Positions 44,088 through 60,352 of a stretch of DNA of 64,000 nt are shown here, in pieces; position 1 is the stretch's first letter; every line of letters starts with the position of its first letter. A program made the position numbers and the translations under genes. Source of the DNA: Candidatus Binataceae bacterium (lineage in GTDB: Bacteria > Desulfobacterota > Binatia > Binatales > Binataceae). The stretch covers positions 33,894 to 97,893 of the forward strand of contig DATJMX010000030.1 of assembly GCA_035508495.1 (NCBI GenBank). Reading direction: 5' to 3'. The notes below the pieces were generated by a model, which saw only the letters and a program-made list of their open reading frames with translations, did no database searches and was not told the DNA's origin.

Positions 44088-44112
44088 CGACCCAAGTCGC
44101 GAGCGCTCGATC

Positions 44113-44350
44113 TGAATAACCTCGCCCGCAAAGCGGGAGAGGTCGGATGGCGAGGAGCTTGAGATGTCTGAGTTCAAGCTGCTTGCCATCCGGGCGAGGG
44201 TGCAGCGGCGGGAGCGTGCAGGAACTTCTCGCTGCTAACATTCTGCCAGCTTCGAACGCCGCACCCTCACCCGCACGTCACGGCGCATGCGAAAAAAACG
44301 CAACCGCTGCGCCGCGCGACCTCTCCCGCGATGCGGGCGAGGTTATTTGG
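44113..44350. mobile_element. 238-bp MITE-like element (family A) with about 33-bp terminal inverted repeats, inserted between the LLM oxidoreductase and obg
   Basis: Left end TGAATAACCTCGCCCGCAAAGCGGGAGAGGTCG; right end CGACCTCTCCCGCGATGCGGGCGAGGTTATTTGG, whose reverse complement is CCAAATAACCTCGCCCGCATCGCGGGAGAGGTCG. A collapsed copy sits at 14997-15048. Confidence 0.65.
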
Positions 44351-44401
44351 GAAATCGGAGAGGCCCCATACACTCGCAGCAACTATATTGTTCGAACCGC
44401 C

Positions 44402-45415
44402 ATGCGATTTATTGATGAAACTCGGGTTTTTGTTAAGGCCGGCAACGGTGGCAATGGGGCGATTGCGTTCCTGCGCGAGAAATATCGCCCCTTCGGCGGG
44501 CCCTCGGGCGGCGATGGCGGCAATGGCGGCAGCGTCATTATCGAAGTCGATGAGGGCCTCTCGACGCTGCTCGATTTCAAGTACCAGCCGCGCCTTATCG
44601 CGCGCGACGGCGAGTCCGGCCGCGGCAAGCAGCAATACGGCCACTCCGCCGACGATCTCGTCGTGCGCGTGCCGCCTGGCACGATCGCCTTCGACGATGA
44701 AACCGGCGAAGTGCTCGCCGATGTTGTGATGCCCGGCTCGCGCGCCGTGATCGCCGAGGGCGGCAAAGGCGGCGCTGGCAATATGCATTTCGCGACCTCC
44801 ACTCGCCGCGCGCCGCGTATCGCGACTCCCGGCACGGCGGGTGTCCAGCGATGGGTGCGGCTCGAGCTGCGCCTGGTCGCGGAAGTCGGCCTCGTCGGCC
44901 TGCCCAACGCTGGCAAATCGACTCTGCTGCGCGCGCTCACCGCCGCGCGGCCCAAGGTCGCGTCGTATCCGTTCACGACGCTGACGCCGAATCTCGGCCG
45001 CGTGCATATCACTGATGAGGAGAGCTTCTCGATCGCCGATATCCCGGGACTTATCGAAGGTGCGCATCTCGGGCACGGCCTCGGAATCCGATTCCTGAAG
45101 CATCTGTCGCGTACCCGCGTCCTGCTTTACGTTCTCGATATTGCAGACAAGCCTGACGAGGCGTTCAAGACCGTGCGCGGCGAGCTCGAAGCCTTCGACG
45201 CGTCCCTGCTCGGGCGTCCCGCGCTCGTCGCACTCAACAAGATCGATCTCCTGGGCGAAGAAGACATTGCGCGTGCGACGCGCGAGGTTGTATCCGCAAC
45301 GAAACTCGAAGTGGTGACGATCTCCGCCGACAAAAAACTGGGACTCGAACCGCTCGTTGCGCGGCTCGCCACGATGCTGCATGAGTTCGATCAGCCCGCC
45401 ACATGTCCCACCTGA
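44402..45415 (+). CDS. obg: GTPase Obg/CgtA
   Basis: MRFIDETRVFVKAGNGGNGAIAFLREKYRPFGGPSGGDGGNGGSV Obg fold; G-domain GLVGLPNAGKST and DIPGLIEGA. Confidence 0.9.
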   Translation: MRFIDETRVFVKAGNGGNGAIAFLREKYRPFGGPSGGDGGNGGSVIIEVDEGLSTLLDFKYQPRLIARDGESGRGKQQYGHSADDLVVRVPPGTIAFDDETGEVLADVVMPGSRAVIAEGGKGGAGNMHFATSTRRAPRIATPGTAGVQRWVRLELRLVAEVGLVGLPNAGKSTLLRALTAARPKVASYPFTTLTPNLGRVHITDEESFSIADIPGLIEGAHLGHGLGIRFLKHLSRTRVLLYVLDIADKPDEAFKTVRGELEAFDASLLGRPALVALNKIDLLGEEDIARATREVVSATKLEVVTISADKKLGLEPLVARLATMLHEFDQPATCPT

Positions 45416-46548
45416 GCTACAAGGCGGAAATCGTCGCCCGCGCGCGCCGCGTCGTGATCAAAGTCGGCAGCGCCGTGCTTTCCGATGCTGACGGACTGCG
45501 TGCCGACGTAATCGATCAGTTAGCATCGCAAGTCGAGGATGCCGTTCGCGCGGAACTCGAAATCGTGATCGTAAGCTCGGGCGCCGTCGCCGCCGGCCGC
45601 GCGAAACTCGGCAAACTCGGCGGCGCGACGATCGCGGCGCGCCAGGCCGCCGCAGCCGCGGGGCAGATCGAGCTGATGTCCGCATGGGCGCGCTCCTTTG
45701 CGGCTCATGGCAGAACCGTCGGGCAGATTCTGCTGACGCATCAGGATGTTGCCGAGCGTAAGCGCAGGGCCAACGCGAATCAGACGATCTCGGAATTGCT
45801 CGGAGCGGGCGTGATTCCGATCGTCAACGAAAACGACACGGTCGCGGTCGAGGAAATCCGCCTCGGCGACAACGACGAGCTGTCGTCGCTGGTCGCAAGC
45901 CTCGTGCAGGCCGAGTTGCTGATAATCCTGAGCGACGTGCCGGGCGTGCTCACCGGCGATCCGCGCAAGCGTCCCGACGCGAGTCTCGTCCCCGTCATCA
46001 CCGATCCTGAAGCCGGGATGCGCGGGCTGGTCGCCGAAAGCGCGGGTCCGCTTGGCAGCGGCGGGATGGCGACCAAGCTCAAGTCGGCGCGGCAGGCCGC
46101 GCGCGCGGGTATCGCGACGATTATCGCCCCGGGCCGTGAGCCCGGCACGATCACGGCCGCGCTCGATCCGGCGCGCGAAGTCGGCACGCTCATCGTTCCC
46201 GCCAGTATCCGGATGAAAAGCCGCAAGCATTGGATCGCCTTCGCGCTCAGGCCCACGGGCGAGCTAGCAGTCGATCGCGGCGCGGCCGAGGCGCTCAAGA
46301 CCAAGGGCCGCAGCCTGCTCGCCTCCGGAATCCGCGAAGTGCGAGGAGAGTTCGGCGGCGGCGACTGCGTGAGCCTGCGCGATCCCGACGGCGTCGAGTT
46401 CGGGCGCGGCCTCGTCAACTATCCGGCCGCCGACGTAATGAAAGTGGCGGGGCGCCGCTCCGCCGAGATCGCATCTTTGCTTGGCTACAAGGTTGCCGAC
46501 GAGATCATACATCGGGATAATTTTGTCTTGCTCAAGGAACTTGAATGA
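45403..46548 (+). CDS. proB: glutamate 5-kinase (with C-terminal PUA domain)
   Basis: VIKVGSAVL, IVSSGAVAAG and IPIVNENDTVAV. Confidence 0.9.
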   Translation: MSHLSYKAEIVARARRVVIKVGSAVLSDADGLRADVIDQLASQVEDAVRAELEIVIVSSGAVAAGRAKLGKLGGATIAARQAAAAAGQIELMSAWARSFAAHGRTVGQILLTHQDVAERKRRANANQTISELLGAGVIPIVNENDTVAVEEIRLGDNDELSSLVASLVQAELLIILSDVPGVLTGDPRKRPDASLVPVITDPEAGMRGLVAESAGPLGSGGMATKLKSARQAARAGIATIIAPGREPGTITAALDPAREVGTLIVPASIRMKSRKHWIAFALRPTGELAVDRGAAEALKTKGRSLLASGIREVRGEFGGGDCVSLRDPDGVEFGRGLVNYPAADVMKVAGRRSAEIASLLGYKVADEIIHRDNFVLLKELE

Positions 46549-47801
46549 GTCTCGAAGCTGAAGTAATTGGCGCGCTCGAGCGTGCCCGCGCCGCCGCGCA
46601 TCCGATGTCGCTCGCGACCACGGAGCAGAAGAACGCGGCGCTGCGCGCGCTCGCCACCTCGATTCGCGCAAACTGCGAGGCGATCGTCGCCGCCAACTCA
46701 AAAGACTTGAAGCGCGCGCGCGACGATGGCCGCACGGGAGCGTTTATCGAGCGACTCACGCTGAATGCGTCACGAATCGAGACGATGGCGAAGTCGGTCG
46801 AGGAGGTCGCCGCCTTGCCCGATCCGGTCGGCGGCGTACTCGAGGAATTCACGCGTCCCAACGGTCTCACGATCAGAAAGGTGCGCGTGCCGCTCGGCGT
46901 GATCGCGATCATTTACGAGTCGCGGCCCAACGTGACGATCGATGCGGGCGCCCTCGGATTCAAGTCCGGCAATGCGATCGTACTGCGCGGCGGCAAGGAA
47001 GCGCTCGAGGCCAACTGCTGTCTCGCCGATCTCATCATCGCGGCGATCCAAGGCGTGGGTCTCAATGCCGACGCGGTCACGCTGATTCGAAATCCCGACC
47101 GCGAAGCGATTCAGATCATGAAGCGGCAGACCACGCTGATCGATTTGATAATCCCGCGCGGCGGCAACGCGCTGAAAGACGCGCTCGCGGGATCCGCGGT
47201 GCCGCTGCTGCCGCATTTCGACGGCCTCTGCAACACCTACGTCGATCGCGCCGCCGATCTGAAGATGGCCGAGGAGATCTGCTTCAACGCGAAGTGCTCG
47301 CGGCCCTCGGTCTGCAACGCGATGGAGAACATGGTCGTTCACTCGGCCGTTGCGGAGCAATTCTTGCCCGCGATCGCGTCGCGATTGATCGCGGCCGGCG
47401 TCGAGTTGCGCGGCGACGAGCGCGTTTGCAGAATCGTTCCGCAAGCGAAGCCCGCTGCACTGAGCGAGTTCGATACCGAATATCTCGACATGATTCTTTC
47501 GATTGCGATCGTCGACTCGCTCGACCAGGCGATCGCCTTCGTCGAGCGTCACAGCTCGCATCTGGCCGATGCGATCGTGACCGGGGATCCGGCCGCGGCC
47601 GCGCGCTTTGAACGCGAGGTCGATTCGGCTACCGTTTACGTCAACGCGTCAACCCGCTTCACTGACGGCTTCGAGTTCGGGTTTGGCGCCGAAACCGGCA
47701 TTTCAACGAACCGCCTGCACGCGCGCGGTCCGATGGGACTCAACGAGCTGACCACTTACAAGTACGTGATTGAGGGCACCGGGCAGGTAAGGATCGTTTA
47801 G
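46545..47801 (+). CDS. proA: gamma-glutamyl phosphate reductase
   Basis: ALDH-like fold with IPRGGNAL, the catalytic Cys region FNAKCSRPSVCNAME, and NASTRFTDGFEFGFGAE. Confidence 0.9.
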   Translation: MSLEAEVIGALERARAAAHPMSLATTEQKNAALRALATSIRANCEAIVAANSKDLKRARDDGRTGAFIERLTLNASRIETMAKSVEEVAALPDPVGGVLEEFTRPNGLTIRKVRVPLGVIAIIYESRPNVTIDAGALGFKSGNAIVLRGGKEALEANCCLADLIIAAIQGVGLNADAVTLIRNPDREAIQIMKRQTTLIDLIIPRGGNALKDALAGSAVPLLPHFDGLCNTYVDRAADLKMAEEICFNAKCSRPSVCNAMENMVVHSAVAEQFLPAIASRLIAAGVELRGDERVCRIVPQAKPAALSEFDTEYLDMILSIAIVDSLDQAIAFVERHSSHLADAIVTGDPAAAARFEREVDSATVYVNASTRFTDGFEFGFGAETGISTNRLHARGPMGLNELTTYKYVIEGTGQVRIV

Positions 47802-47818
47802 GCCGCAGTCTTTGGGGT

Positions 47819-48463
47819 TTGCAGGTGCGGGTAGGACTGTTCGGCGGAAGTTTCAATCCCATTCATCTCGGACACTTGCGCTCGGCTGAGGAAGTGCGCG
47901 AGGCGCTGAAGCTCGACCTGATTTATTTCATCCCGGCCGCCTCGCCGCCGCATAAGGCGGAGGGCGATCTCGCCCCCGCCGAGCATCGCCTGGCGATGGT
48001 GCGCCTCGCGACCAAGGGCAATCGCCATTTCATGGTCTCGGATATCGAGGTGCGGCGCATGGGGCGCTCGTTCACGATCGAGACCGTCCGCTACTTCAAC
48101 TCGACGCTCCGTCAGCCCGCGCCGCTCTACCTTATGATGGGGATGGATCAGTTCAACGAATTCGACACCTGGCGCGAGGCCGACGAGCTCGTGCGGCTGT
48201 GCAATCTCGCCGTTCACACAAGATTAAACGAGGAGCAGGACGGGCCGTCGCGAATTTCGGTTGCCACGCTCGATCGCTTTGGCTACAGTCGCAGTGACGA
48301 TCACTACGTGCATCCGAGCGGAAACACGCTTTCTTTCGTTCAAACCACTTTCCTTCCTATTTCTGCCACCGCGATCCGCCACAAGCTCCAGCAAGGCGAG
48401 TCGATCAACTATCTCGTGCCCGGCGATGTCGTCGATTATATCAAGCGCCACGCGCTCTACTGA
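47819..48463 (+). CDS. nadD: nicotinate-nucleotide adenylyltransferase
   Basis: GLFGGSFNPIHLGHL (HxGH nucleotidyltransferase motif). Confidence 0.85.
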   Translation: MQVRVGLFGGSFNPIHLGHLRSAEEVREALKLDLIYFIPAASPPHKAEGDLAPAEHRLAMVRLATKGNRHFMVSDIEVRRMGRSFTIETVRYFNSTLRQPAPLYLMMGMDQFNEFDTWREADELVRLCNLAVHTRLNEEQDGPSRISVATLDRFGYSRSDDHYVHPSGNTLSFVQTTFLPISATAIRHKLQQGESINYLVPGDVVDYIKRHALY

Positions 48464-48544
48464 GGTTTAGGAACTGGGTATTCCCCGCCAATCCGTATCA
48501 GCCCTACATACCGCCGCGGCACGCAGCCGCAGCGAGAGGAAGCA

Positions 48545-48934
48545 GTGACAGCAATCGAAAAAGCCTATGCTGCCGTCGAGGCGGCACTGGACAAGAAAGG
48601 CTATGACCTGGGCGTGTTCGAAGCCGAGCATCTGAAATCGGTCGCCGACTATTTCATGGTCGTGACGGGACGCTCGGACGTTCAATGCCAGGCGATTGCG
48701 CGCGGAATCGAGGAACGCCTCGCCACCGCAGGCGCTCGCCCGCTTGCGATCGAAGGCTTTCAGCATGCGCACTGGATCCTGCTCGACTACGACGACGTCG
48801 TGGTCCACGTCTTCTACGAACCGGCAAGAGAATTCTACAGACTGGAGACCAACTGGCTCGACGCAAACGCAGTCCCGCTCCCGGAGCCTCTCAGCCGGCA
48901 AGCGAAGGAACTGCGTCTACACGCCAGCGGCTGA
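48545..48934 (+). CDS. rsfS: ribosome silencing factor RsfS (Iojap family)
   Basis: KKGYDLGVFEAEHLKSVADYFMVVTGRSDVQCQAIARGIEE...WILLDYDDVVVHVF; GTG start. Confidence 0.8.
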   Translation: MTAIEKAYAAVEAALDKKGYDLGVFEAEHLKSVADYFMVVTGRSDVQCQAIARGIEERLATAGARPLAIEGFQHAHWILLDYDDVVVHVFYEPAREFYRLETNWLDANAVPLPEPLSRQAKELRLHASG

Positions 48935-48956
48935 TTCCTGTCCCCGATCCTTCAAC

Positions 48957-48988
48957 CCCTCTCCCTGGTCAGGGAGCGGGATTTTCGG
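48957..48988. repeat. repeat family E copy (CCCCTCTCCCTGGTCAGGGAGCGGGATTTTCGG)
   Basis: Matches 32137-32175. Confidence 0.5.
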
Positions 48989-49077
48989 ACCTGGCGAAAG
49001 TGGGCCGGTTGTTCCGCGATGCGCGGGTCTGTTAGATGAATCCTTAGCGTTGTATCGAACGGGTCTGGGCGAAAATC

Positions 49078-50106
49078 GTGGATCATCATGAAATGGGCGC
49101 CAGCGCGGGCGACGTGACCGCGCCTTCTGCCGCCTTCGCCACCGGCTATGATGCCGCGACGAAGGCCGCAGGCGTGCGCGTGATGCGCGAGCGGATGGTC
49201 GTGCGCGTGGTCGGCGACGATCGCGTCTCGTTCTTTCACGGGATGTGCAGCGCCGATGTGAAAGGCGCATCGGCGGGATCGATACTGCCCGCGCTCTTTC
49301 TCACCGAGCATGCTCATGTGATCGCTGATCTCTTTATCTGGGTGACGGATGATTCGCTCCTGCTCGAAATCGACTCTGGTGCATGGCAACGTACGCGAGA
49401 GCATCTCGAACGACTGCTCGTCGCAGACGATGTTGAGTTCGAGGATACAGACCTTGCCGTCATCGACGTCGAGGGTCCGCGATCATCCGATACTGCCGCG
49501 CTCCTCGGCGCTCGCGATGCATCGTCGCCGCAATCATGGCGCTATCTGCCAGTTAACGAATTGCTGATCGGCAACCTGCCGCGGGTTGGATCTCCTGCGT
49601 TCACGATTCTCGCGCCTGTGGAGCGTGCGGATTCGATCGCCGCGAAAATCATTGCGGCGATTCCGGGCGCGGCCGCGATCGATGATGCCGTCGTCGAAAC
49701 GCTACGCATCGAAAACGGTCTCGCGCGTGCCGGCGTCGATACTGGCGAGAAGACGCTCGCGCTCGAGGCTCGCCTCAATCGCGCGATCTCATTCAACAAG
49801 GGATGCTACCTGGGCCAGGAAACGATCGAACGTGCGACCGCGCGTGGAGCATTGAAAAAGCAGCTCTTTGTGCTTAAGTTTCCCGCCGGAAAGATTCCGC
49901 CCGCGGGCGCGGCGCTGATGCTCGACGGCAAGGAAGTTGGGCGTGTGACGAGTACGGCGATTTCGCCGCGCGCAGGCACAATTGGCCTCGCGATACTCCA
50001 TCACAGCGCATGGGCCGCGGGTACGAAACTCAGCCTCGACGGCGACGGCGACGCCGCGATCGTTGGTGACATCCCCTCGCAATCGAGCGGACGAATGTTA
50101 GATTGA
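49078..50106 (+). CDS. ygfZ: folate-binding Fe-S cluster repair/tRNA-modification protein YgfZ (GcvT-like)
   Basis: NKGCYLGQETIERATARG matches the YgfZ KGC(Y/F)xGQE signature. Confidence 0.7.
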   Translation: MDHHEMGASAGDVTAPSAAFATGYDAATKAAGVRVMRERMVVRVVGDDRVSFFHGMCSADVKGASAGSILPALFLTEHAHVIADLFIWVTDDSLLLEIDSGAWQRTREHLERLLVADDVEFEDTDLAVIDVEGPRSSDTAALLGARDASSPQSWRYLPVNELLIGNLPRVGSPAFTILAPVERADSIAAKIIAAIPGAAAIDDAVVETLRIENGLARAGVDTGEKTLALEARLNRAISFNKGCYLGQETIERATARGALKKQLFVLKFPAGKIPPAGAALMLDGKEVGRVTSTAISPRAGTIGLAILHHSAWAAGTKLSLDGDGDAAIVGDIPSQSSGRMLD

Positions 50107-50150: not shown

Positions 50151-50294
50151 ATGGCTAACACTCTTGGAAAGCGATACATGTGCGAGAAGTGCGGTACCGA
50201 GGTACTCTGCAACAAGGCCGGCACCGGCGAGTTCGAGTGTTGTGAAGTGCAGATGAAGATCAAGGAGGCCAAGCCGCTTCCATCTTCCGACTGA
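50151..50294 (+). CDS. desulforedoxin-like small metal-binding protein (47 aa; below the ORF-track threshold)
   Basis: MANTLGKRYMCEKCGTEVLCNKAGTGEFECCEVQM fits the desulforedoxin pattern VYxCxxCGxxV...GGTLxCCGxxM (CxxCG ... CC); AGGGAG RBS 8 nt upstream. Confidence 0.55.
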   Translation: MANTLGKRYMCEKCGTEVLCNKAGTGEFECCEVQMKIKEAKPLPSSD

Positions 50295-50333
50295 CGTAGT
50301 GGAACCGCCCGCGTAATGCGGACGGCGTGGTGA

Positions 50334-51899
50334 TTGCCGCAAGTGACATCGACGCCTGGGAAGGCCGACCTGGTGCTGCATGAGGGCGTGGTCCTGGGAC
50401 ATCCAGGCAGCGACTCGGTAGCACTCGGCGGCGGATTTATCACGGCTCACGGCTCGTACTCGGATCTAAAGTCGGTGGTGGGTCCTCGCACCCACCTCAT
50501 CAAGCTCGCTGGCCGCGTCGTGGCGCCAGGTCTCGTCGATTCGCATCTGCATTTCTTCGAGGCCGCAGCGGTCACGACCGGAGTCTCGATTCAGCGCTGC
50601 CAGACGATCAAGGACCTCCTCGCGGACCTGCGCGTGGCTGCGGGCCGCACTCCGCCCGGCAATTGGCTGCGCGCCTTCGGATGCGATGAGGCGCTGCTCG
50701 CCGAGAAACGCGGACCGACGCGCGCCGAGCTCGACCTCGCGATTCCGAAAAATCCCATTCGCCTGCGCCATCAGACGCTCCACGCCTCGTGGCTCAATTC
50801 CCGCGCGATCAATCTGCTCGGCCTCGAAGCTCCGGGCTTCGCGCCGCCCGAGGGTGCGACGATCTACACCGATGCTGCGGGGAAGCCGAGCGGCCTCGTG
50901 CTCGGGATGGAAGAATGGATCACGCGGCATCTGCCGCTGGTGACCAAAGCCGAGGCTGAGGCACGCGCGCGCACGATGAGCCGCGAGCTATCCGCCGCCG
51001 GCGTGACCGCGTTCACCGATGCGACCTCGCGCAACAGTGCCGTCGAGGTGGAAGCGTTTGCGAAGTACGTGCAATCGGGCTCGATCTGCCAGCGCGTTGG
51101 CGTGATGATCGGCGCGCCGCATCTCGATTCGGCTGAGCAAGCGTCCGCACTCGCAAACGCCGCCGGCATGCGGCTGGCGGGCGCCAAGTTCATGCCGGGC
51201 GCGGGCTACGATGGTGAGGCCACTGTCTCTTTGACAGCGCAGGCAGCGACGATGGGCCTCGACTGCGCGTATCACGTCACCGAAGTCGAAGAACTCGAGC
51301 AGGCGCTCCTGGCGATTGAAGCGACCCGGCCGACGCTCACCGAAGCGCAGATGCCGGTTTTTAGAATCGAGCACGGCGGCACGATTCCGCCGAACTATAT
51401 CGATCGAATCACCGCCAGCGGCGCGTGGGTGGTGACAAATCCCGGCTTCGTTTATTTTCGCGGCGCCAAGTATCTCGCCGATCCCGGCATGGTGCCTCAT
51501 CTCTATCGCGCCGAGAGCCTGCGCAAGGCTGCGATTCATCTCGCGGGCGCGACAGATGCGCCTGTCACTCCGGCGCGCCCGCTGGCCGCGATCGCCGCCG
51601 CGATCTCGCGCACGACGGTGCAGGGCAAGGAGTTCGGGCCTAACGAAAAGATTGCGCCCGACGAGGCTTTCGCGATGTTCACCCGCGCGGGCGCTCGCTT
51701 GGCGCGGCTTCGCGCAGGTGTGATCGAGCCGGACAATCTTGCGGACTTGATCGTCCTGCCGCGCGACCCGACGACGCTCAAGCCCGCCGACCTGATGAAC
51801 ATGCAGGTCGATCTGACGATCGTCGGTGGACGCGTTGTCTATGAGCGCGGCCGTCCTGCGGTCGCCAATAGCGACAGCGCCGATCTCCATTCAGCCTGA
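50334..51899 (+). CDS. amidohydrolase-family metal-dependent hydrolase
   Basis: PGLVDSHLHFFEAA (HxH) and downstream His/Asp ligands; Amidohydro_3-like length. Confidence 0.7.
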   Translation: MPQVTSTPGKADLVLHEGVVLGHPGSDSVALGGGFITAHGSYSDLKSVVGPRTHLIKLAGRVVAPGLVDSHLHFFEAAAVTTGVSIQRCQTIKDLLADLRVAAGRTPPGNWLRAFGCDEALLAEKRGPTRAELDLAIPKNPIRLRHQTLHASWLNSRAINLLGLEAPGFAPPEGATIYTDAAGKPSGLVLGMEEWITRHLPLVTKAEAEARARTMSRELSAAGVTAFTDATSRNSAVEVEAFAKYVQSGSICQRVGVMIGAPHLDSAEQASALANAAGMRLAGAKFMPGAGYDGEATVSLTAQAATMGLDCAYHVTEVEELEQALLAIEATRPTLTEAQMPVFRIEHGGTIPPNYIDRITASGAWVVTNPGFVYFRGAKYLADPGMVPHLYRAESLRKAAIHLAGATDAPVTPARPLAAIAAAISRTTVQGKEFGPNEKIAPDEAFAMFTRAGARLARLRAGVIEPDNLADLIVLPRDPTTLKPADLMNMQVDLTIVGGRVVYERGRPAVANSDSADLHSA

Positions 51900-52645
51900 T
51901 GCCGGAATCATCCGCCGACGCGGTTCTCTATGAGAAGCGCGGCCCCATCGCATGGGTCACGCTCAACCGCCCCAAGCAGTACAACGCTTACAACGTAGCG
52001 ATGCGCGACGCGCTGTTCGGCGCGCTCAACGCCGTTCACGACGACCATGAAGTCCGCGCGATGGTGCTCTGCGGCGCGGGCTCGGCGTTCTCGACCGGCG
52101 GCGACCTCGCCGAGTTCGGATCCGCGCCGTCGCCGACCGTCGCGCGATGGGTCCGCTTTCGCCGCGACGTGTGGGGCACGATGCGCTCGTTGCCGATCCC
52201 GACGATCGCCGCGATTCACGGCTTTACGGTAGGCGGCGGGCTCGAGATGGCGCTCATTTGCGACTTTGCCATAGCTGCCGACGATACGCGGATTTGTCTG
52301 CCCGAAACCGGCTCGGGAATGATCCCCGGCGTCGCGGGAACGCAGACCGCCTCGCGCCGGCTCGGGCTCAGCCGCGCTCTCGATCTCTGCATCACCGGCC
52401 GTTGGATTGACGCGCAAGACGCGTTACTTGTAGGTTTGGTCGCCGACGTGGTGCCGCTCCCGGACCTCGAGCGCCGCGCCCTCGAAATGGCGCACGCGGT
52501 GGGTCGCCTGCCCCGCGAAACCTCCGCAATGTTGAAGCTTGCGGTGTGGGGTGGGCTGGAGTTGCCGATGCGGGACGGCCTCGAACTCGAACGGCATCTG
52601 GCGAAACGCCTTGAACAGATTACGGCGCGGGTTGCCCGCGGCTGA
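51899..52645 (+). CDS. enoyl-CoA hydratase/isomerase (crotonase) family protein
   Basis: ITLNRPKQYNAYN...RAMVLCGAGSAFSTGGDLAEF...GFTVGGGLEMALICDFAIAADDTRICLPE. Confidence 0.8.
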   Translation: MPESSADAVLYEKRGPIAWVTLNRPKQYNAYNVAMRDALFGALNAVHDDHEVRAMVLCGAGSAFSTGGDLAEFGSAPSPTVARWVRFRRDVWGTMRSLPIPTIAAIHGFTVGGGLEMALICDFAIAADDTRICLPETGSGMIPGVAGTQTASRRLGLSRALDLCITGRWIDAQDALLVGLVADVVPLPDLERRALEMAHAVGRLPRETSAMLKLAVWGGLELPMRDGLELERHLAKRLEQITARVARG

Positions 52646-52701
52646 AATCCGTTCGCCTCGCCATTGGATTGAATTGAAGCGCTCAGGAGGCTTCGCGGTT
52701 A

Positions 52702-54249
52702 GTGAACACGGTTAACTTCGTAACGATTCCGTCCGCTATCGTACCCGACCAGGAAATCCTGGTTTTCGGCGAAAAGCGGCTTAACTTTGCAGAGCTTGCC
52801 GAGCGAGTGGGGCGTCTTTCCACCGCTTTCAAGCAGTTCGGACTCGGCCAGCGCGACGTGGTTGCCGTGCTGGACACCAACTCGGACCTCTATATCTCGT
52901 GCTACTACGGCGCGGCCAAGGCGGGACTAACGTTCCTGCCGCTAAACTACCGGGCCAAGGAAGCCGAGCTCGAGTACATGATCAATACCGCGGCCGCCAA
53001 GGTCCTGCTGGTCGGCGATCGCTATCTCGATCTCGTTGCGAAGCTCCAGCCCAAGCTCAAGGTCGAGCAGATCGTGGCGATGGGCGACGGCCGGAACGGC
53101 ATGCCGCGAATCGGCGAGATCATTGCGAAGTCGGATCCCGACGAGGGCGAAGCAGAAGTCGATGACGAGGACACCTCGATCCTGATGTACACGAGCGGTA
53201 CCACGTCGCTGCCCAAGGGCGTGATGCTCTCGTTCCACGACTTCACCGCCTACGTGACGGCGAATGTCGATATGGCCGACGGCACCGATCGCGGCACGGC
53301 GCTCGTGTGCGTGCCTTTTTACCATATCGCCGGGACCACGGCGTACATGTCGAATGTCTGGACCGGCAGGCGCCTCGTTATTATGCCGCAGTTCGATGCG
53401 AAGACGTGGCTCGATCTCGTTCAGAAGGAGCACGTCACGCATGCCTTCGTCGTCCCGACGATGATGAAACAGCTTATCGACGATCCCGCCTTCGCCAAGA
53501 CCGATCTCACGAGCCTGACCAACGTCGCCTACGGCGGCGCGCCGATGCCGGTGCAGGTAATCCGTCGCGCGATCGAGGTCTTTCCCAAGACTGTCGGGTT
53601 CGTGAACGCATATGGCCAGACTGAGACGACCTCCTCGCTGACGGTGCTCGGCCCCGACGACCATCGGATTCAGGGCACGCCCGAGGAAGTCGAGCTGAAG
53701 CTGAAGCGCCTCAATTCGATCGGCAAGCCGCTCCCCGACGTCGAGATTCGCGTGCGCGACGATGACGGCGCGTTCCTCGATATCGGCAAGATCGGCGAAA
53801 TCGTGATTCGTACGCCGCGCATCATGAAGGGCTACGCTGGGCGCGAGGATGACGCCAAGCTCGCCGACGGATGGCGCGCGACCGGCGATCGCGGCTGGAT
53901 CGACGACGACGGCTACGTGTTCTTCGCCGGCCGCAAGGACGACATGATCATCCGTGGCGGCGAGAATATCGCGCCCGCCGAAATCGAGTCGGTGCTGATG
54001 AGCCATCCGGGTGTCGATGAGTGCGCGGTCATCGGTATCCCGTCGGTGGAATGGGGTCAGACGGTCAAGGCCTTCGTCGTTCCTCGCAAAGGCGCGAAAG
54101 TTACCGAGGAAGATCTCAGCGAGTATTGCCGCAGCCGTCTTTCGAGCTTCAAGCGGCCCGAAACGATCGAGTTTATCGACGAGCTGCCGAAGAATCCGCT
54201 CGGCAAGATCCTGCGCAAAGATCTGCGCGCCGCTTCCGGAGAGATCTGA
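52702..54249 (+). CDS. AMP-dependent acyl-CoA synthetase/ligase
   Basis: AMP-binding motif ILMYTSGTTSLPKGVML, YGQTETT, GWRATGDRGWIDDDGYVFFAGRKDDMIIRGGENI, and a C-terminal lysine region. GTG start with AGGAGG RBS. Confidence 0.85.
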   Translation: MNTVNFVTIPSAIVPDQEILVFGEKRLNFAELAERVGRLSTAFKQFGLGQRDVVAVLDTNSDLYISCYYGAAKAGLTFLPLNYRAKEAELEYMINTAAAKVLLVGDRYLDLVAKLQPKLKVEQIVAMGDGRNGMPRIGEIIAKSDPDEGEAEVDDEDTSILMYTSGTTSLPKGVMLSFHDFTAYVTANVDMADGTDRGTALVCVPFYHIAGTTAYMSNVWTGRRLVIMPQFDAKTWLDLVQKEHVTHAFVVPTMMKQLIDDPAFAKTDLTSLTNVAYGGAPMPVQVIRRAIEVFPKTVGFVNAYGQTETTSSLTVLGPDDHRIQGTPEEVELKLKRLNSIGKPLPDVEIRVRDDDGAFLDIGKIGEIVIRTPRIMKGYAGREDDAKLADGWRATGDRGWIDDDGYVFFAGRKDDMIIRGGENIAPAEIESVLMSHPGVDECAVIGIPSVEWGQTVKAFVVPRKGAKVTEEDLSEYCRSRLSSFKRPETIEFIDELPKNPLGKILRKDLRAASGEI

Positions 54250-54299
54250 CGCCGCGCCGAGCTAAAGCCGCCGCAAAGCGGAAAACTCGCCCAACCACC

Positions 54300-55034
54300 G
54301 TGGCCGGTGCGGTCGAGGTCGCACTCGCCAACGGATGCGTAACGGCGACGCTCAACTTCGGCGACGCGCGCGCAATCCTCGACGAGACGATGGCTGCTTC
54401 GCTGCTCGAGGTCTTCGAGCAGGTCGAGGACGATGACGACATCCGGATGCTCGCGATCACGGGCAGCGGCGCGAATTTCTGCCGCGGCTTCGAGCGCAAT
54501 TGCGATGCGCGCCTGGTCGAATCGCTCGCGGTTATCTCGAAACCTACCGTCGCGATTATCAACGGCTTTGCGATTGACGAGGGCCTCGAGCTCGCGATGG
54601 CGGCTGATATCCGCATCGCGCTTGGCGCTGCGCGCCTGGCGATGACGCAGCTGAATCGAGGCGAGCTGCCGCGCTTCGGTGGCACGCAGCGACTGCCAAG
54701 GCTCGCGGGTGCTGCGAATGCGCTCCGCATGATGCTCACGTCGGCCTCGATCGACGGAAACGAGGCGGCGCGAATCGGCCTCGTCAGTTACCTCGCCAAC
54801 GGCCATGTGCAGCTCGCTCAGATCTCAGCGCAGGTCGCTCAGGCTATAATAAGTCGTGCGCCCGTCGCGGCGCGGCTGGTCAAGGATGCCGTCCTCAAGG
54901 GCTACGACATGACGCTCGACCAGGGCATCAGGCTTGAGGAAGATCTCTATGCCCTGCTACAAACGACAGCCGACCGCGCCGAGGGCGTGCGGGCGTTCCT
55001 GGAAAAACGCAAGCCGCTCTTTCGCGGCGCGTGA
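54300..55034 (+). CDS. enoyl-CoA hydratase/isomerase family protein (second copy)
   Basis: GSGANFCRGFE, KPTVAIINGFAIDEGLELAMAADIRIA and RAFLEKRKPLF. GTG start chosen at 54300 to avoid overlapping the ligase; start uncertain. Confidence 0.65.
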   Translation: MAGAVEVALANGCVTATLNFGDARAILDETMAASLLEVFEQVEDDDDIRMLAITGSGANFCRGFERNCDARLVESLAVISKPTVAIINGFAIDEGLELAMAADIRIALGAARLAMTQLNRGELPRFGGTQRLPRLAGAANALRMMLTSASIDGNEAARIGLVSYLANGHVQLAQISAQVAQAIISRAPVAARLVKDAVLKGYDMTLDQGIRLEEDLYALLQTTADRAEGVRAFLEKRKPLFRGA

Positions 55035-55073
55035 TCGATGATTACTACATTCCTGAAGGAGTTCCGGTTCACG

Positions 55074-55193
55074 ATGCCTAATCAGCTTGGAAAAGTTTAT
55101 ATCTGCGGCAAATGCGGCTCGCAGGTAATTGTCACCAAGGGCGGCACCGGCGCACTCAAGTGCTGCGGCGCCCCGATGGAACAGAAGAAATAG
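55074..55193 (+). CDS. desulforedoxin-like small metal-binding protein (39 aa; below the ORF-track threshold)
   Basis: MPNQLGKVYICGKCGSQVIVTKGGTGALKCCGAPMEQKK; compare D. gigas desulforedoxin [30 protein letters not shown] from memory. GAAGGAG upstream. Confidence 0.6.
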   Translation: MPNQLGKVYICGKCGSQVIVTKGGTGALKCCGAPMEQKK

Positions 55194-55211
55194 GCGAGCA
55201 GGAGGCGCTGC

Positions 55212-55871
55212 ATGGACGCTGAAGCTTTCGTCCGGCAATTGGTCTCCGAAAATGACGAAATCCTGCGCCGACTCGCGCCTGCCCAGGCCCTCAAGGCCGA
55301 AAGCGGCGGCGACCTGAATCCGCAGCGGCTGCTGCGTATCGCGCTCAAGAACGAGATCGAAGCGAGCGAGATCGCCGCGCTCTGGATGCCGCACGCTGCT
55401 GGCGCCGAGCTGAAGCTCGCGCTCGCGCGGCAGGCGGGTGACGAGGCGCGGCACTATCGGCTTATCGAAGAGCGCCTCCATGCGCTCGGCGACGATCTGG
55501 CGGGCTACGATCCGCTCGCGCCGGGCTACAGCCCGATGTTCCAGTTTCTCGCGGGGCTCAAGTCCGACGTTGAGCGCGTCGCGGCGGGTCAGTTCACGCG
55601 CGAGGCGATCGCACTCGCGCGTAACGCGCAGTTCATCGAACTATGCGATATGACCGGAGACCACCAGACGGCGCGCCTCTACCGCGACGTGATCCAGCCC
55701 GACGAGCGCTTCCATCATGAGCTCGGTGTGCGCTTCCTGGAGCGGCTGGCGACCGGCGACGAGGCGCAGGCGCTCGCGCAAGGCGCGCGGGCGCGCACGA
55801 TCGAACTGGCCGAGGAACTGCAGACGCTCGCCTTCAAGCGCAGCGGGATTCATCACGCTCCCGGCTGTTGA
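55212..55871 (+). CDS. ferritin-like superfamily protein with putative di-iron carboxylate site
   Basis: All-helical, with paired E...ExxH motifs (EIEASE...DEARHY and REAIA...ERFHHE) spaced as in di-iron four-helix bundles. Confidence 0.5.
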   Translation: MDAEAFVRQLVSENDEILRRLAPAQALKAESGGDLNPQRLLRIALKNEIEASEIAALWMPHAAGAELKLALARQAGDEARHYRLIEERLHALGDDLAGYDPLAPGYSPMFQFLAGLKSDVERVAAGQFTREAIALARNAQFIELCDMTGDHQTARLYRDVIQPDERFHHELGVRFLERLATGDEAQALAQGARARTIELAEELQTLAFKRSGIHHAPGC

Positions 55872-55901
55872 TCGCGGGCCGACCGGCGCGAGTTAACCGC
55901 G

Positions 55902-56507
55902 ATGGAAAACGTCCACGACAACAGCACCATAATCAGCGAAGTATTCACTGCGCTATGCGCGAGCGATCTCAGAAAGGCGCGCTTCACGATCAAGGACAAG
56001 TACGAGTTCCAGCTCGTGACGCCCGCGACGCGTGTATACAGCGAGGTCGAGCTGCTCTCGGTCTTCATGCGCGACGGCTTTATCGATCGCTACTCGCCCA
56101 ATCGCCAGCGCCTGATGTTCCCGGGAGTCCTGCGGCTGCTGTCACATTTCATGCCCGATTTGTTCCCCTTCGATCCGCATTGGAAACTCTCCGAATGCCA
56201 TATCGCCTACTGGGAGCTGATGCCGACGATTGACCATCGCGTGCCGGTCGCGCGCGGGGGCGTCGATGCGGAATCGAACTGGATCACGACCTCGCAGATT
56301 CGCAACAGCGCCAAGGGCGCGTGGACACTCGAGGAACTCGGATGGAAAGAGCAGCCGCCCGGAAACCTCGCCGAATGGGACGGGCTGATGGCGGCATTCG
56401 TCGATTACTTCGACAAGAACCCGCCGCTCGCCGAGGAGCCCTCCCTGAAAACGTGGCGCGATGCGGTCGCCGCATGCGAAACCAATCGCGCCAAACAACC
56501 CGCCTGA
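55902..56507 (+). CDS. HNH (His-Me finger) nuclease-like protein
   Basis: CHIAYWELMPTIDHRVPVARGGVDAESNWITTSQIRNSAKG resembles an HNH motif (DH...GG...N...N). Confidence 0.4.
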   Translation: MENVHDNSTIISEVFTALCASDLRKARFTIKDKYEFQLVTPATRVYSEVELLSVFMRDGFIDRYSPNRQRLMFPGVLRLLSHFMPDLFPFDPHWKLSECHIAYWELMPTIDHRVPVARGGVDAESNWITTSQIRNSAKGAWTLEELGWKEQPPGNLAEWDGLMAAFVDYFDKNPPLAEEPSLKTWRDAVAACETNRAKQPA

Positions 56508-56526
56508 GACAGCAGCCGGAGAATCG

Positions 56527-56760
56527 ATGATCGCAACAATAGTGATCGGTCTCGTCGCAGGATGGCTCGCCGGCATCCTGATGCGCGGCAGCGGCTACGG
56601 AATGTTCGTCGACATCCTGCTTGGCCTGATCGGCGCAGTGATCGGCCGCTGGATCTTCGCAACGCTCGGAATCGCCGCAGTAGGCGGCCTCGGCTACCTC
56701 GCGATGTCCACGGTAGGCGCCGTGGTTCTGGTAGCGATCACGCATCTGTTCCATCGCTAG
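56527..56760 (+). CDS. GlsB/YeaQ/YmgE-family small stress-response membrane protein
   Basis: MIATIVIGLVAGWLAGILMRGSGYGMFVDILLGLIGAVIGRWIF matches this family. Confidence 0.7.
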   Translation: MIATIVIGLVAGWLAGILMRGSGYGMFVDILLGLIGAVIGRWIFATLGIAAVGGLGYLAMSTVGAVVLVAITHLFHR

Positions 56761-56930: not shown

Positions 56931-57023
56931 GGGTTGGACGCGAACAAGAAAGCTCGAACTGATCCAAACAACCAACCCGGCGATGGCCGATCTCAGTCCC
57001 GCATTGGCATAGAATACTGGACG

Positions 57024-58286
57024 ATGCGGTTTCACTTCGTGCACGCACGAATCTTTCTTGCACTCGCGATCGTGGTGGCGTTCTCAATCGCGCCCGCACC
57101 AGCGCACGCCGACACCCTCGCGGATCGCGCGGGGCAGCTTGCCGATGCTGCGTTTGTGATGCTCAATTCGCTCAACAATGCGGAGGCCGGCAAGTACAGC
57201 GGCGGGCCGCTGCTTGCGCCTACCGCTGAACTCGCGAGCAATGCGCAGGCGCTCGCTTCGGCAGTGAAATCCGGCGATACCTCGGGAGCGCGGCATGCGA
57301 TGGCCGCGATCGTTCGCGACCAGGGCACGATTGAGCCGCTCACCAATGGCATATCGCCCACAATTCTCGCCGAATGGGGTTCGCTGAAGACCCAGATCGC
57401 GTTGGTACAGAAAGAGGTGCCGCCCGAGCAGGGTGCGCCGCCTTCGATTCCGGCTGCATCTGAACCTCCTGCCGAATCACCGCCGCCGGTCGGCTCGGCG
57501 CCGGTATCGAGTCACGCCAGCGCACCGCAAATCGTGATCGACAAGCGCACTTCAAATCCCGAAGACGATTCGCTGACCGTGCATGGCTTTATCCAGGGCA
57601 CCGATCTCAAGGACGCCGGGATCTATCAGGGTGGCCGCAAGCTCAAGGATATCGAGGTCGCGAGCGTGCACGGTGAGCAGCGCCTCAACTTTACCTTCAA
57701 GATCAATGATCCCGAGCCCGACCAGTACATCAGTGCGACGGATATCGAGGGCCGCCAGGCGAGCGCCAGTATCACGGGCGATTCGAGCGCCCCGTCATTA
57801 GCACCGCCAGCGAGCGAAGCGGGCGGTGCGTCCGAAGCGGGAGTCGCACCCGAAGCGGGAGAGGCGCCGACGATCGGAGGCTCGGACAGCAGCACGGCCG
57901 AGATTTCACCGTCGGGCGGTCCCGAGCTTTCACCCGAGCCCACCCGCCGCCTGACTGAGCTTGGCAACGTGCAAATCAATATCGCGATGATCCGGCGCTC
58001 GCCGACCGCGACCAATGAGTACGAAGTGAGCGGCCAGATCGTTGGCAACGTGACGCGCGCCGGAATCTACGCCGGCGGCCGCATGATCAAGCAAATCCCG
58101 CTGATCCCCGGCGGCTTCAGCAACTTCGACGTGACCTTCTCACGACTCGGCCGCAAGAATATCGCGATTCGCGCCTACGGACCCGGCAGCGACTTCGTCG
58201 AGCAGCCTCTCGCCCCGGGCGCCGGTATCTCGACCTTCAGCAACGCCCGCCCGTCGAGTCCATATCCTTACGGTGCCGCCCCCTAA
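57024..58286 (+). CDS. secreted protein with Pro/Ala/Ser-rich linkers and two internally repeated beta-domain modules
   Basis: Signal MRFHFVHARIFLALAIVVAFSIAPAPAHA. Repeats HGFIQGTDLKDAGIYQGGRKLKDIEV...FTFKI and SGQIVGNVTRAGIYAGGRMIKQIPL...FDVTF. Confidence 0.5.
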   Translation: MRFHFVHARIFLALAIVVAFSIAPAPAHADTLADRAGQLADAAFVMLNSLNNAEAGKYSGGPLLAPTAELASNAQALASAVKSGDTSGARHAMAAIVRDQGTIEPLTNGISPTILAEWGSLKTQIALVQKEVPPEQGAPPSIPAASEPPAESPPPVGSAPVSSHASAPQIVIDKRTSNPEDDSLTVHGFIQGTDLKDAGIYQGGRKLKDIEVASVHGEQRLNFTFKINDPEPDQYISATDIEGRQASASITGDSSAPSLAPPASEAGGASEAGVAPEAGEAPTIGGSDSSTAEISPSGGPELSPEPTRRLTELGNVQINIAMIRRSPTATNEYEVSGQIVGNVTRAGIYAGGRMIKQIPLIPGGFSNFDVTFSRLGRKNIAIRAYGPGSDFVEQPLAPGAGISTFSNARPSSPYPYGAAP

Positions 58287-58576: not shown

Positions 58577-59140
58577 ATGCAGATTCAAGCGACGCAACTC
58601 CGCGCCGGTATGGTGCTCGAGTACAACAAGGATCTATGGCGCGTGATGAGCGTCACTCACATCACACCCGGCAACTGGCGCGGGATGGTGCAGACCAAAC
58701 TGCGCAACATCAAGAGCGGCTCGCAGACAGAAAATCGCTTCCGCTCTGAAGACCGCGTCGAGCGCGTCATCCTGAACCAGCATACGATGCAGTTCCTCTA
58801 CCAGGATGGCGACGACTATCACTTCATGAACACCGAGAACTACGAGCAGATCACGATTCCCAAGGATCTGATCGAAGACGTCGTCGGCTACCTCACGCCC
58901 AACCTCGAAGTCGAAGTCGAGTTCTACGAGACCACGCCGCTCAACGTCACTCCGCCCAAAACGATCACGCTCAAGGTGATCGCGGCCGACCCGGGTCTCA
59001 AGACCGCCGCTGTCACCAACACGCTCAAGAATGCCACGGTCGAAACCGGGATGGTCGTGCAGGTGCCGCACTTCGTCAACGAAGGCGATACCATCACGCT
59101 CAACACCGAAACCGGCGAATATCTCTCGCGGAACAAGTAG
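58577..59140 (+). CDS. efp: elongation factor P
   Basis: MQIQATQLRAGMVLEYNKDLWRV...KLRNIKSGSQTENRFRSEDRVERV...PHFVNEGDTITLNTETGEYLSRNK. Confidence 0.9.
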   Translation: MQIQATQLRAGMVLEYNKDLWRVMSVTHITPGNWRGMVQTKLRNIKSGSQTENRFRSEDRVERVILNQHTMQFLYQDGDDYHFMNTENYEQITIPKDLIEDVVGYLTPNLEVEVEFYETTPLNVTPPKTITLKVIAADPGLKTAAVTNTLKNATVETGMVVQVPHFVNEGDTITLNTETGEYLSRNK

Positions 59141-60352
59141 GTGCAGACGCCTGGCGGCAAGCGTGCGCCCGCGCGCGGCCGCGCTAATGCGCCCACGGAC
59201 ACCAGCCGGCCGCGAGGTCCACGGCGCGCGCCGCGTCCTGAGCGCGAGTCGCCCGCGCCGCTGCGGCTCGTGCCGGGGCTCTACTCGGCATATACGCAGC
59301 CTGGATTCGAGGTGATCGCGGCGAACGAAATTGCCGCCCGGATCGCAGGCGCGCGCGAAGTCGCTCGGCGTTCGATTCCGGATCGCGCCGGGGTCACGAT
59401 CTTCTCCGCAAGGAACGCGGCCGATGCGCTCGCACGGCTGCGAACTACCGAAGACATCTTCACGGTTGCCGGCTATCGCGCGGGCCTTGGTATCGAGCCG
59501 CCGACGCTCGACAAGGTGCGAGGCGTATCGCGCGATGCGCCCTTTGTCGAAGCCGCCCTGCACGATCGCGCTACGATGACGCCCGGCTCGCGCGCGGGCC
59601 GCCGATTGCGCTATCGCGTCGTGGCGCGCCTGGTCGGCGATCACCAGTTTCGCCGCGTCGATCTCCAGCACGCCGTCGAACGTGGAATCGCCGAGCGCGA
59701 GGACCATACCTGGCGCCTTGACGAGGAAGCCGACGTCGAGTTCTGGGCCACAATGAACGCGGGCGAATTAGTGCTGGAAGTGCGGCTCACCGACGAGCGC
59801 ATGCGCCATCGCGAGTACAAGGCGGCGCATCGAATCGCGGCGCTCAGGCCGTCGGTCGCAGGCGCGCTCGCATGGCTCTCGGAGCCCGAGGAATCCGACG
59901 TAGTGCTGGATCCGTTCTGCGGCACGGGTACGATTCTCATCGAGCGGGCGCATCTGGGACGCTATGCGATGCTCTACGGCAGCGATCGCGATCCCGCGGC
60001 GCTCGAAGCGGCGCGCGCCAACGTCGGTCCGCGCTACAAACCGATCCAGCTCGAGCGATGGGACGCGGCTGCCCTTCCAATCGAACCCGCGAGCGTGTCG
60101 AAAATCGTGACCAACCTGCCGTGGGGCAAGACCTACGGCACGCACGGCGAGAATCGCCGCCTCTATCCAAAGTGGTTCGCTGAGTTCAGCCGCGTGCTCA
60201 GGAAGGACGGCCGAGTCGTCGCGCTCACCTCCGAATGGCGCCTGATGCGCGAGCTCGAAGAGCGCGGCATCTTCAAAGCCGACAAAGTCTTCCGCGTGTC
60301 GATCCTCGGCGCCTCAGCCGCAGTGTACGTCGGCCGCAATCGCGCTCAGTAA
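59141..60352 (+). CDS. THUMP-domain class I SAM-dependent RNA (m2G-type) methyltransferase
   Basis: Motif I LDPFCGTGTILIE and catalytic NLPWG (NPPY-type), with an upstream THUMP-like region. The first 40 or so codons are Arg/Pro-rich; an in-frame GTG at 59270 (VPGLYSAYTQPGFE) may be the real start. Confidence 0.7.
   Translation: MQTPGGKRAPARGRANAPTDTSRPRGPRRAPRPERESPAPLRLVPGLYSAYTQPGFEVIAANEIAARIAGAREVARRSIPDRAGVTIFSARNAADALARLRTTEDIFTVAGYRAGLGIEPPTLDKVRGVSRDAPFVEAALHDRATMTPGSRAGRRLRYRVVARLVGDHQFRRVDLQHAVERGIAEREDHTWRLDEEADVEFWATMNAGELVLEVRLTDERMRHREYKAAHRIAALRPSVAGALAWLSEPEESDVVLDPFCGTGTILIERAHLGRYAMLYGSDRDPAALEAARANVGPRYKPIQLERWDAAALPIEPASVSKIVTNLPWGKTYGTHGENRRLYPKWFAEFSRVLRKDGRVVALTSEWRLMRELEERGIFKADKVFRVSILGASAAVYVGRNRAQ

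Follow-up and report, generated by a model that had tools for sequence, protein, structure and literature searches.

A desulforedoxin-type gene and a DUF455-like di-iron gene in Binataceae: neighbours in a variable operon tail, not parts of a conserved four-gene module

Introduction

Rubrerythrins and desulforubrerythrins carry two metal sites in a single polypeptide: an Fe(Cys)4 centre and a di-iron four-helix bundle whose ligands come from two E..ExxH pairs. In the desulforubrerythrin of Campylobacter jejuni, the desulforedoxin-like domain is fused ahead of the di-iron bundle (Pinto 2011, as covered in PMC7482061). A 64-kb stretch of DNA from a Binataceae bacterium, here called the window, encodes the same two kinds of module as separate, neighbouring genes: Dx2, of the desulforedoxin type, and DI, which encodes a ferritin-like di-iron protein. 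Two further genes follow on the same strand, one with an HNH motif (HNH) and one of the GlsB/YeaQ/YmgE family (YeaQ). A sequence-only reading of the window took these four genes (55074-56760) for a split rubrerythrin-like oxidative-stress unit; for the fused arrangement that it had in mind, the C. jejuni protein is a real precedent.

How does this locus compare with the described systems? Dx2 falls into the same length class (36-39 amino acids, aa) as desulforedoxin of Desulfovibrio gigas and the N-terminal domain of desulfoferrodoxin, and it shares their cysteine spacing, including the adjacent CC pair. It differs from both in its setting, an acyl-CoA/amidohydrolase operon of an uncultured soil lineage (Binatota), and from desulfoferrodoxin in having no attached superoxide-reductase domain. 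Its operon also contains a paralogue, Dx1, at the opposite end.

DI resembles the DUF455 (PF04305)/MiaE_2-like proteins in size (~220-250 aa) and in the pattern of its di-iron ligands, but it scores just under the curated cut-off for DUF455, and a C-terminal PGC tail marks a narrower subfamily. The DUF455 family itself has no known function, and a literature search on it returned nothing relevant. Unlike the rubrerythrins, DI lacks a C-terminal rubredoxin domain and has extra N- and C-terminal helices as well as the PGC tail; moreover, Dx2 and DI are separate genes, unlinked in most genomes. DPSL proteins (thioferritins) form dodecamers and have a bacterioferritin-like centre, with two conserved cysteines between that centre and the protein surface (PMC12532284). 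DI has such a centre, but its two conserved cysteines lie elsewhere, at the end of helix C (C145) and at the extreme C-terminus (C219). It is also ~60 residues longer than bacterioferritin, the DPSL proteins and the Dps-like PA4880, with additional helices, and nothing in its sequence indicates that it would assemble into a cage.

Do the four genes belong together? We compared ~170 related loci and find that they are not a conserved unit, and that Dx2 and DI are therefore at most occasional partners. Dx2, DI and HNH are separable, and Dx2 and DI each occur by themselves much more often than as a pair. All four genes are of known kinds. The region is probably the tail of a conserved Binataceae operon in which a variable slot happens to hold DI and HNH. 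This result serves mainly as a correction: neither annotation nor mining should treat the four genes as a single system.

Results and discussion

The four-gene order is confined to one subclade

The window does contain four co-oriented open reading frames (ORFs) on the + strand between 55074 and 56760, as the sequence-only reading had described. Dx2 (55074-55193) encodes a stand-alone protein of 39 aa with a CxxC-15-CC motif, predicted to form an Fe(Cys)4 site. DI (55212-55871) encodes a 219-aa DUF455-like protein of the ferritin-like, di-iron-carboxylate kind, with a flexible C-terminal HHAPGC tail. HNH (55902-56507; 201 aa) is a putative nuclease gene, and YeaQ (56527-56760; 77 aa), the usual end of the block, encodes a small membrane protein of the Transgly_assoc family. 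All four domain assignments were correct, and the gap between Dx2 and DI is exactly 18 bp, as claimed (55194-55211); an AGGAGG Shine-Dalgarno sequence lies inside it. What did not hold up is the unit. HNH occurs in none of the 80 loci of a sample centred on DI, and the four-gene order is found only in the window's own subclade (L087-L091).

The DI-centred sample was drawn from 80 species-representative genomes. In 21 of the loci, which we call Binataceae-type, DI is at least 67% identical to that of the window; the remaining 59 come from Rokubacteria/Methylomirabilota, Terriglobia, Limnocylindria and Entotheonellaceae. Every one of the 21 Binataceae-type loci has Dx2 upstream of DI, together with the upstream acyl-CoA genes, at a distance of 44-209 bp counted from the end of the CC motif. 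Among the 59 loci from other phyla, no Dx motif was found within 6 kb of DI.

A second sample, centred on Dx2, comprised 80 metagenome loci (L093-L172), 67 of them informative in that they extend at least 900 bp downstream. ECH2, a gene for an enoyl-CoA hydratase/isomerase (ECH), was detected directly 5' of Dx2 in 78 of the 80, and Dx2 almost always lies 35-50 bp past it. What comes after Dx2 is variable. In the informative loci the slot holds DI (15 loci), a ~215-aa polysaccharide deacetylase of the Polysacc_deac_1 family (18), HNH alone (1) or other genes (14), and in 19 loci YeaQ follows directly. Dx2 stands without DI in 52 of the 67. Four more loci (L083-L086) have ECH and Dx2 followed by YeaQ or an unrelated gene, again without DI; in L083-L085 the order is ACS-ECH-Dx2-YeaQ, where ACS is a gene for an acyl-CoA synthetase-like enzyme. 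The contigs of L083-L085 are labelled Stellaceae (Alphaproteobacteria) and carry an ACS 77% identical to the window's, which looks like a binning error or possibly a transfer.

Because the spacer between Dx2 and DI varies from 18 to 364 bp across genomes, coupling between the two genes is not tight. Dx2 is constantly accompanied by the acyl-CoA operon, and DI is one of several occupants of the slot that follows. In most Binataceae-type loci YeaQ comes after DI or directly after Dx2. The sequence-only reading had proposed looking for the Dx2-DI pair across genomes and had counted its failure to co-occur as evidence against a split rubrerythrin. The outcome is divided: the pair is present in all Binataceae-type DI loci, and it is missing from all DI loci elsewhere and from most loci that have Dx2.

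Dx2 is a desulforedoxin-type protein

Dx2 matches the Pfam model Desulfoferrod_N (PF06397) with 35.1 bits (E=1.1e-8), over the cut-off of 23. The D. gigas desulforedoxin (1DXG/1CFW) aligns with its full length (E=4.7e-4), and all four cysteines of the motif are in register with those of 1CFW/1DXG and of the N-domain of desulfoferrodoxin (1DFX). These cysteines are invariant among Dx2 orthologues, which are 64-100% identical over more than 100 loci. Both the score and the cysteine register bear out the desulforedoxin-like identity first read from the sequence. In desulforedoxins the Fe site is a distorted tetrahedron and the protein is a homodimer. Iron binding by Dx2 is predicted; a Zn-ribbon role may be possible too. 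The C-terminus, ...QKK, is almost invariant.

Where does Dx2 start? Conservation among the orthologues begins at M-(A/P)-N-Q-L-G-K, so the start at 55074, which the sequence-only reading had also chosen, is likely the true one. The NCBI annotation places the start at an ATG at 55038, giving a protein of 51 aa (deposited as VMA09_10455) whose N-terminus is unconserved. A search with this longer form, restricted by its word index, turned up close relatives only.

Scanned in six frames over its full 64 kb, the window gave only two stop-free matches to CxxC-(10-22)-CC, Dx2 and Dx1 (50151-50294), so the motif is not a chance feature. Dx1 encodes a 47-aa desulforedoxin-like paralogue, also on the + strand and with CxxC-15-CC spacing, which opens the conserved block; against PF06397 it scores 18.6 bits, below the cut-off. 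It lies upstream of the amidohydrolase gene in 18 of the 21 Binataceae-type loci. The contigs of two others (L004 and L009) end before that position, and in L017 no Dx1 was found.

DI as a DUF455-like member of the ferritin-like superfamily

Structure prediction, which the sequence-only reading had proposed as a check on the 219-aa protein, gave an all-helical AlphaFold2 model (pLDDT 90, pTM 0.86), in keeping with its expectation. In this model four long helices (37-61, 65-91, 119-148 and 151-179) bear the ligands, two extra helices lie at the N-terminus and one at the C-terminus, and the tail (213-219) is disordered. The four-helix bundle can be superposed on ferritin-like proteins. The two E..ExxH pairs seen in the sequence proved to be a complete set: E48, E78xxH81, E131 and E165xxH168. 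These six residues are invariant in 31 homologues and are retained in almost all full-length representatives of clusters made at 50% identity; several are gone from a few members that are clearly degenerate.

To which ferritin-like proteins is DI closest? When the family profile was run against the sequences in the PDB, the top match was the bacterioferritin 1nf4 (6e-6), followed by the DPSL protein 2vzb (1e-3); rubrerythrins scored E=0.15 and PaaA E=0.42. Among sequence families DUF455 matches DI best, with 32.4 bits where the cut-off is 34.3. Seventeen of 22 relatives match DUF455 at E<0.01, and two of them (P0132 and P0003) pass the cut-off with ~36 bits. The Pfam model Rubrerythrin (PF02915) does not match the DI of the window and matches one of the 22 relatives, weakly (E=0.0023). 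No rubredoxin-like domain is present in DI, which has no CxxC pairs and only the two cysteines C145 and C219, and no NCBIfam model matches it. The earlier label of a rubrerythrin-like di-iron ferritin-like protein is thus right about the di-iron, ferritin-like part, whereas 'rubrerythrin' is true only at the level of the superfamily; on these comparisons DI lies outside the rubrerythrin family. A role as a MiaE-like tRNA hydroxylase, to which MiaE_2 matches and QueG and YgfZ neighbours might point, was set aside as too weakly supported (E ~0.03).

Homologues of DI number in the thousands. The nearest, of which most have a length of exactly 219 aa, are mainly from Binataceae, with some from Rokubacteria. 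The family is nevertheless narrow, with 364 clusters at 50% identity among 1.84 billion representatives. All 118 close homologues end in ...PGC-COOH, as do 24 divergent cluster representatives, down to ~30% identity, and we found no described ferritin-like family with such a tail. In the window's clade the last six residues are an invariant HHAPGC (214-219; window 55854-55871). Cys145 is present in 21 of 27 members with the tail and in 4 of 14 without it, in counts that ignore phylogeny. Together these features mark DI as a member of a small, strongly conserved DUF455-like ferritin-like family with the PGC tail as its signature. The subfamily is uncharacterised, yet databases already label it 'ferritin-like/DUF455'.

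DI in other phyla

Outside the Binataceae-type loci DI belongs to a different operon, with genes for peptide deformylase and a ~130-aa pseudo-receiver upstream and a gene for a Transglut_core2+TPR (SirB1-like) protein downstream. In Rokubacteria/Methylomirabilota (L024-L082; for example, L058, L061 and L082) the pseudo-receiver (RR-like), DI and SirB1-like genes are translationally coupled, their start and stop codons often overlapping by 1-7 bp, and one cluster representative (P0122) is an in-frame fusion of the pseudo-receiver with DI. None of the Rokubacteria partners sought in the window (RR-like, SirB1-like, Def and QueG) is present there. The pseudo-receiver has no Pfam match; peptide deformylase and QueG lie further upstream of it. 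One locus of the Rokubacteria type, QueG-DI-SirB1 (L047), is labelled as the archaeon Nitrosocosmicus, again apparently a binning error or possibly a transfer. A YgfZ/CAF17-type folate-binding gene (GCV_T; window 49078-50106) lies a few genes from DI, in a loose association that spans three phyla (L015, L020, L045, L032 and L080, from Binataceae, Methylomirabilis and Terriglobia).

Neighbours of this sort raise the question of whether DI handles iron. Rather than being a catalytic oxidase, it could be a ferroxidase that forms a cage, as bacterioferritin and DPSL proteins do, or it could donate iron for the repair of Fe-enzymes, with its His/Cys tail binding or delivering the metal. The tail, predicted to be disordered, indeed offers many potential metal ligands (HH...C), and peptide deformylase, QueG and YgfZ are Fe-dependent or Fe-S-related. 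However, ~70 extra residues of DI make three added helices around the bundle, unlike the 140-170-aa subunits of cages, and DI is closest in sequence to DUF455/MiaE_2-like proteins, a family with monomeric enzymes as relatives. We regard an iron-handling role as improbable.

Is Dx2 the electron donor of DI?

The explanation that we favour begins with a conserved block of the Binataceae (phylum Binatota) in the order Dx1, amidohydrolase, ECH, ACS, ECH, Dx2, variable slot, YeaQ. The last intergenic slot would have gained DI first and HNH afterwards. DI would bind two Fe through E48, E78/H81, E131 and E165/H168 within a bacterioferritin/DPSL-like four-helix core, and would turn over O2 or H2O2 as an enzyme of the oxidase/peroxidase type. 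Its flexible, cysteine-ended tail (HHAPGC) may act together with Cys145 as a thiol or metal relay. In those Binataceae that have DI, the co-expressed Dx2 could serve as an opportunistic electron donor; DI presumably does not depend on Dx2, nor would Dx2 exist for the sake of DI.

Several points weigh against so loose a relationship. Di-iron enzymes need a reductant, a part classically played by Fe(Cys)4 proteins. Every Binataceae-type DI directly follows Dx2, in the 21 loci of the DI-centred sample and in the 15 metagenome loci, just as a functional pairing would predict. The short gap in the window, with its strong Shine-Dalgarno sequence, is compatible with co-translation. Desulforubrerythrin fuses these exact modules in the identical order. 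The absences of DI and Dx reported above were judged at the level of single loci. Finally, the chemistry that we propose for DI is deduced from its predicted fold and ligands only.

A rival explanation keeps the core of the sequence-only reading and leaves out HNH and YeaQ. It is a two-gene version of a (desulfo)rubrerythrin-like peroxidase, in which Dx2 would be the dedicated electron entry for DI and the two would jointly reduce H2O2 or O2. The parts are suitable: Dx2 is a bona fide desulforedoxin-type protein, and DI has the full ligand set and a bacterioferritin/DPSL-like core. DPSL proteins with such centres have a preference for H2O2 and a role in oxidative stress (PMC12532284). Yet all 59 of the DI loci from other phyla do without a nearby Dx motif, and most Dx2 genes do without DI, their slot being empty, for instance, or filled by the deacetylase. 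The constant neighbour of Dx2 is ECH2 and not DI, the spacer is variable, and the DI of the window does not match the Rubrerythrin model. Adjacency inside a single family can, moreover, be inherited synteny, which is not independent evidence. A dedicated pair is therefore unlikely in our view, and it keeps the weight it has because Binataceae DI adjoins Dx2, because the gap in the window is short and because the small protein is encoded first, just as the desulforedoxin-like domain comes first in desulforubrerythrin.

A bolder proposal is that DI represents a new enzyme class, with thiol-coupled di-iron redox chemistry, and that its pair with Dx2 is a split desulforubrerythrin-like peroxidase/oxidase in an aerobic soil phylum. 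The terminal cysteine would move back and forth between the di-iron site and an outside reductant, which in Binataceae would be Dx2. We consider this quite unlikely. If Dx2 did feed electrons to DI, rubrerythrin-type peroxide defence would extend to a split, two-gene format in uncultured Binatota, and a DUF455-like family would have its first function. More useful leads, we think, are the acyl-CoA/amidohydrolase operon bracketed by Dx1 and Dx2, the variable slot before YeaQ and the PGC-tailed di-iron family.

The upstream acyl-CoA block

Four enzyme genes lie between Dx1 and Dx2, all on the + strand. First comes an amidohydrolase of the Amidohydro_3 family (50334-51899; 222 bits in Pfam), followed by ECH1, an enoyl-CoA hydratase/isomerase (51899-52645; ECH_1, 163.8 bits), and by ACS (52702-54249; AMP-binding, 271 bits, plus AMP-binding_C); these three are syntenic in the Binataceae-type loci. 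ECH2 (54300-55034; ECH_1), with an inferred GTG start at 54300, completes the set. The two desulforedoxin-type genes (50151-55193) thus bracket an amidohydrolase, an AMP-binding ligase and two ECH enzymes. The block contains no oxidoreductase gene that would account for two Fe(Cys)4 proteins.

Could DI be an oxygenase of this acyl-CoA pathway? It would then be a small di-iron epoxidase or hydroxylase of the PaaA/BoxB kind, with the CoA thioester that the ligase makes as its substrate. Electrons would reach it through Dx1 and Dx2, and its product would be taken further by the amidohydrolase and the two crotonase-family enzymes. Aerobic CoA-dependent pathways for aromatic compounds (Paa and Box) combine exactly such enzyme classes, and in the window the ligase, two ECH genes, amidohydrolase, two Dx genes and DI form one same-strand block. 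DI has structural similarity to PaaA, and some sources auto-annotate its homologues as the catalytic subunit of phenylacetyl-CoA epoxidase. Against this, PaaA reached only E=0.42 in the PDB profile search, and PaaA and BoxB are both far larger proteins than the 219-aa DI. The direct neighbours of DI in other phyla include no CoA-pathway genes: all that appeared were remote homologues of acyl-CoA synthetases (30-44% identity), in 9 of the 59 loci, encoded on the opposite strand and kilobases away. Most sampled lineages have the operon but no DI, and elsewhere DI exists with no such operon, which makes this role very improbable.

HNH is an insertion in the window's subclade

The HNH gene scores 14.8 bits against the Pfam HNH model, below the cut-off of 21.4, and matches PHROG HNH families weakly. 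All the same, 16 homologues from a family of ~190-aa proteins share the motif PTIDH..P..RGG.D...NW..S...N..K without variation, which confirms the claim of an HNH motif for the third gene. Alignment with the closest relatives that lack HNH reveals a clean insertion of ~620 bp into the 30-70-bp spacer between DI and YeaQ. HNH occupies this same site only in the window's subclade: in L087 (100% identity; the window's strain), L088-L090 (92%) and L091 (72%). The next homologues are ~50% identical and come from Planctomycetota and others, in unrelated contexts. The dN/dS values of HNH are 0.10-0.16, similar to those of DI and YeaQ. HNH is probably a separately acquired gene, and it is maintained under purifying selection. 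No tie to a redox function was detected, and HNH would not take part in one.

One further locus deserves mention. In L125 (1017-1580) an HNH homologue 52% identical to that of the window lies immediately 5' of YeaQ, in a lineage without DI. Either the gene has long resided there and been lost many times, or insertion at this one site has happened repeatedly.

The match of the fourth gene, YeaQ, to Transgly_assoc (PF04226), at 40.5 bits with a cut-off of 25.3, agrees with the GlsB/YeaQ/YmgE identity given to it earlier.

Genomic surroundings

A scan for sigma-70 promoters in the region found none, and a terminator scan found none on the + strand inside 55034-56760; neither result is informative for this phylum. 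No PADLOC model matches any gene of the region, which is no known defence system.

The block is embedded in housekeeping genes (window 43062-50106 and 58577-60352). Upstream are genes for a luciferase-like oxidoreductase, Obg, ProB, ProA, NadD, RsfS and YgfZ; downstream are those for EF-P and an RlmK/L-like methyltransferase. Other Binataceae have RsfS and NadD on the downstream side and on the other strand, a sign of local rearrangement. Directly downstream of YeaQ in the window is an ORF of 450 aa (56934-58286), rich in Ala, Pro and Ser and with an N-terminal hydrophobic segment, that has no match in Pfam, NCBIfam or PADLOC. In the HNH-bearing Binataceae loci, a 398-aa gene stands where the window has this ORF.

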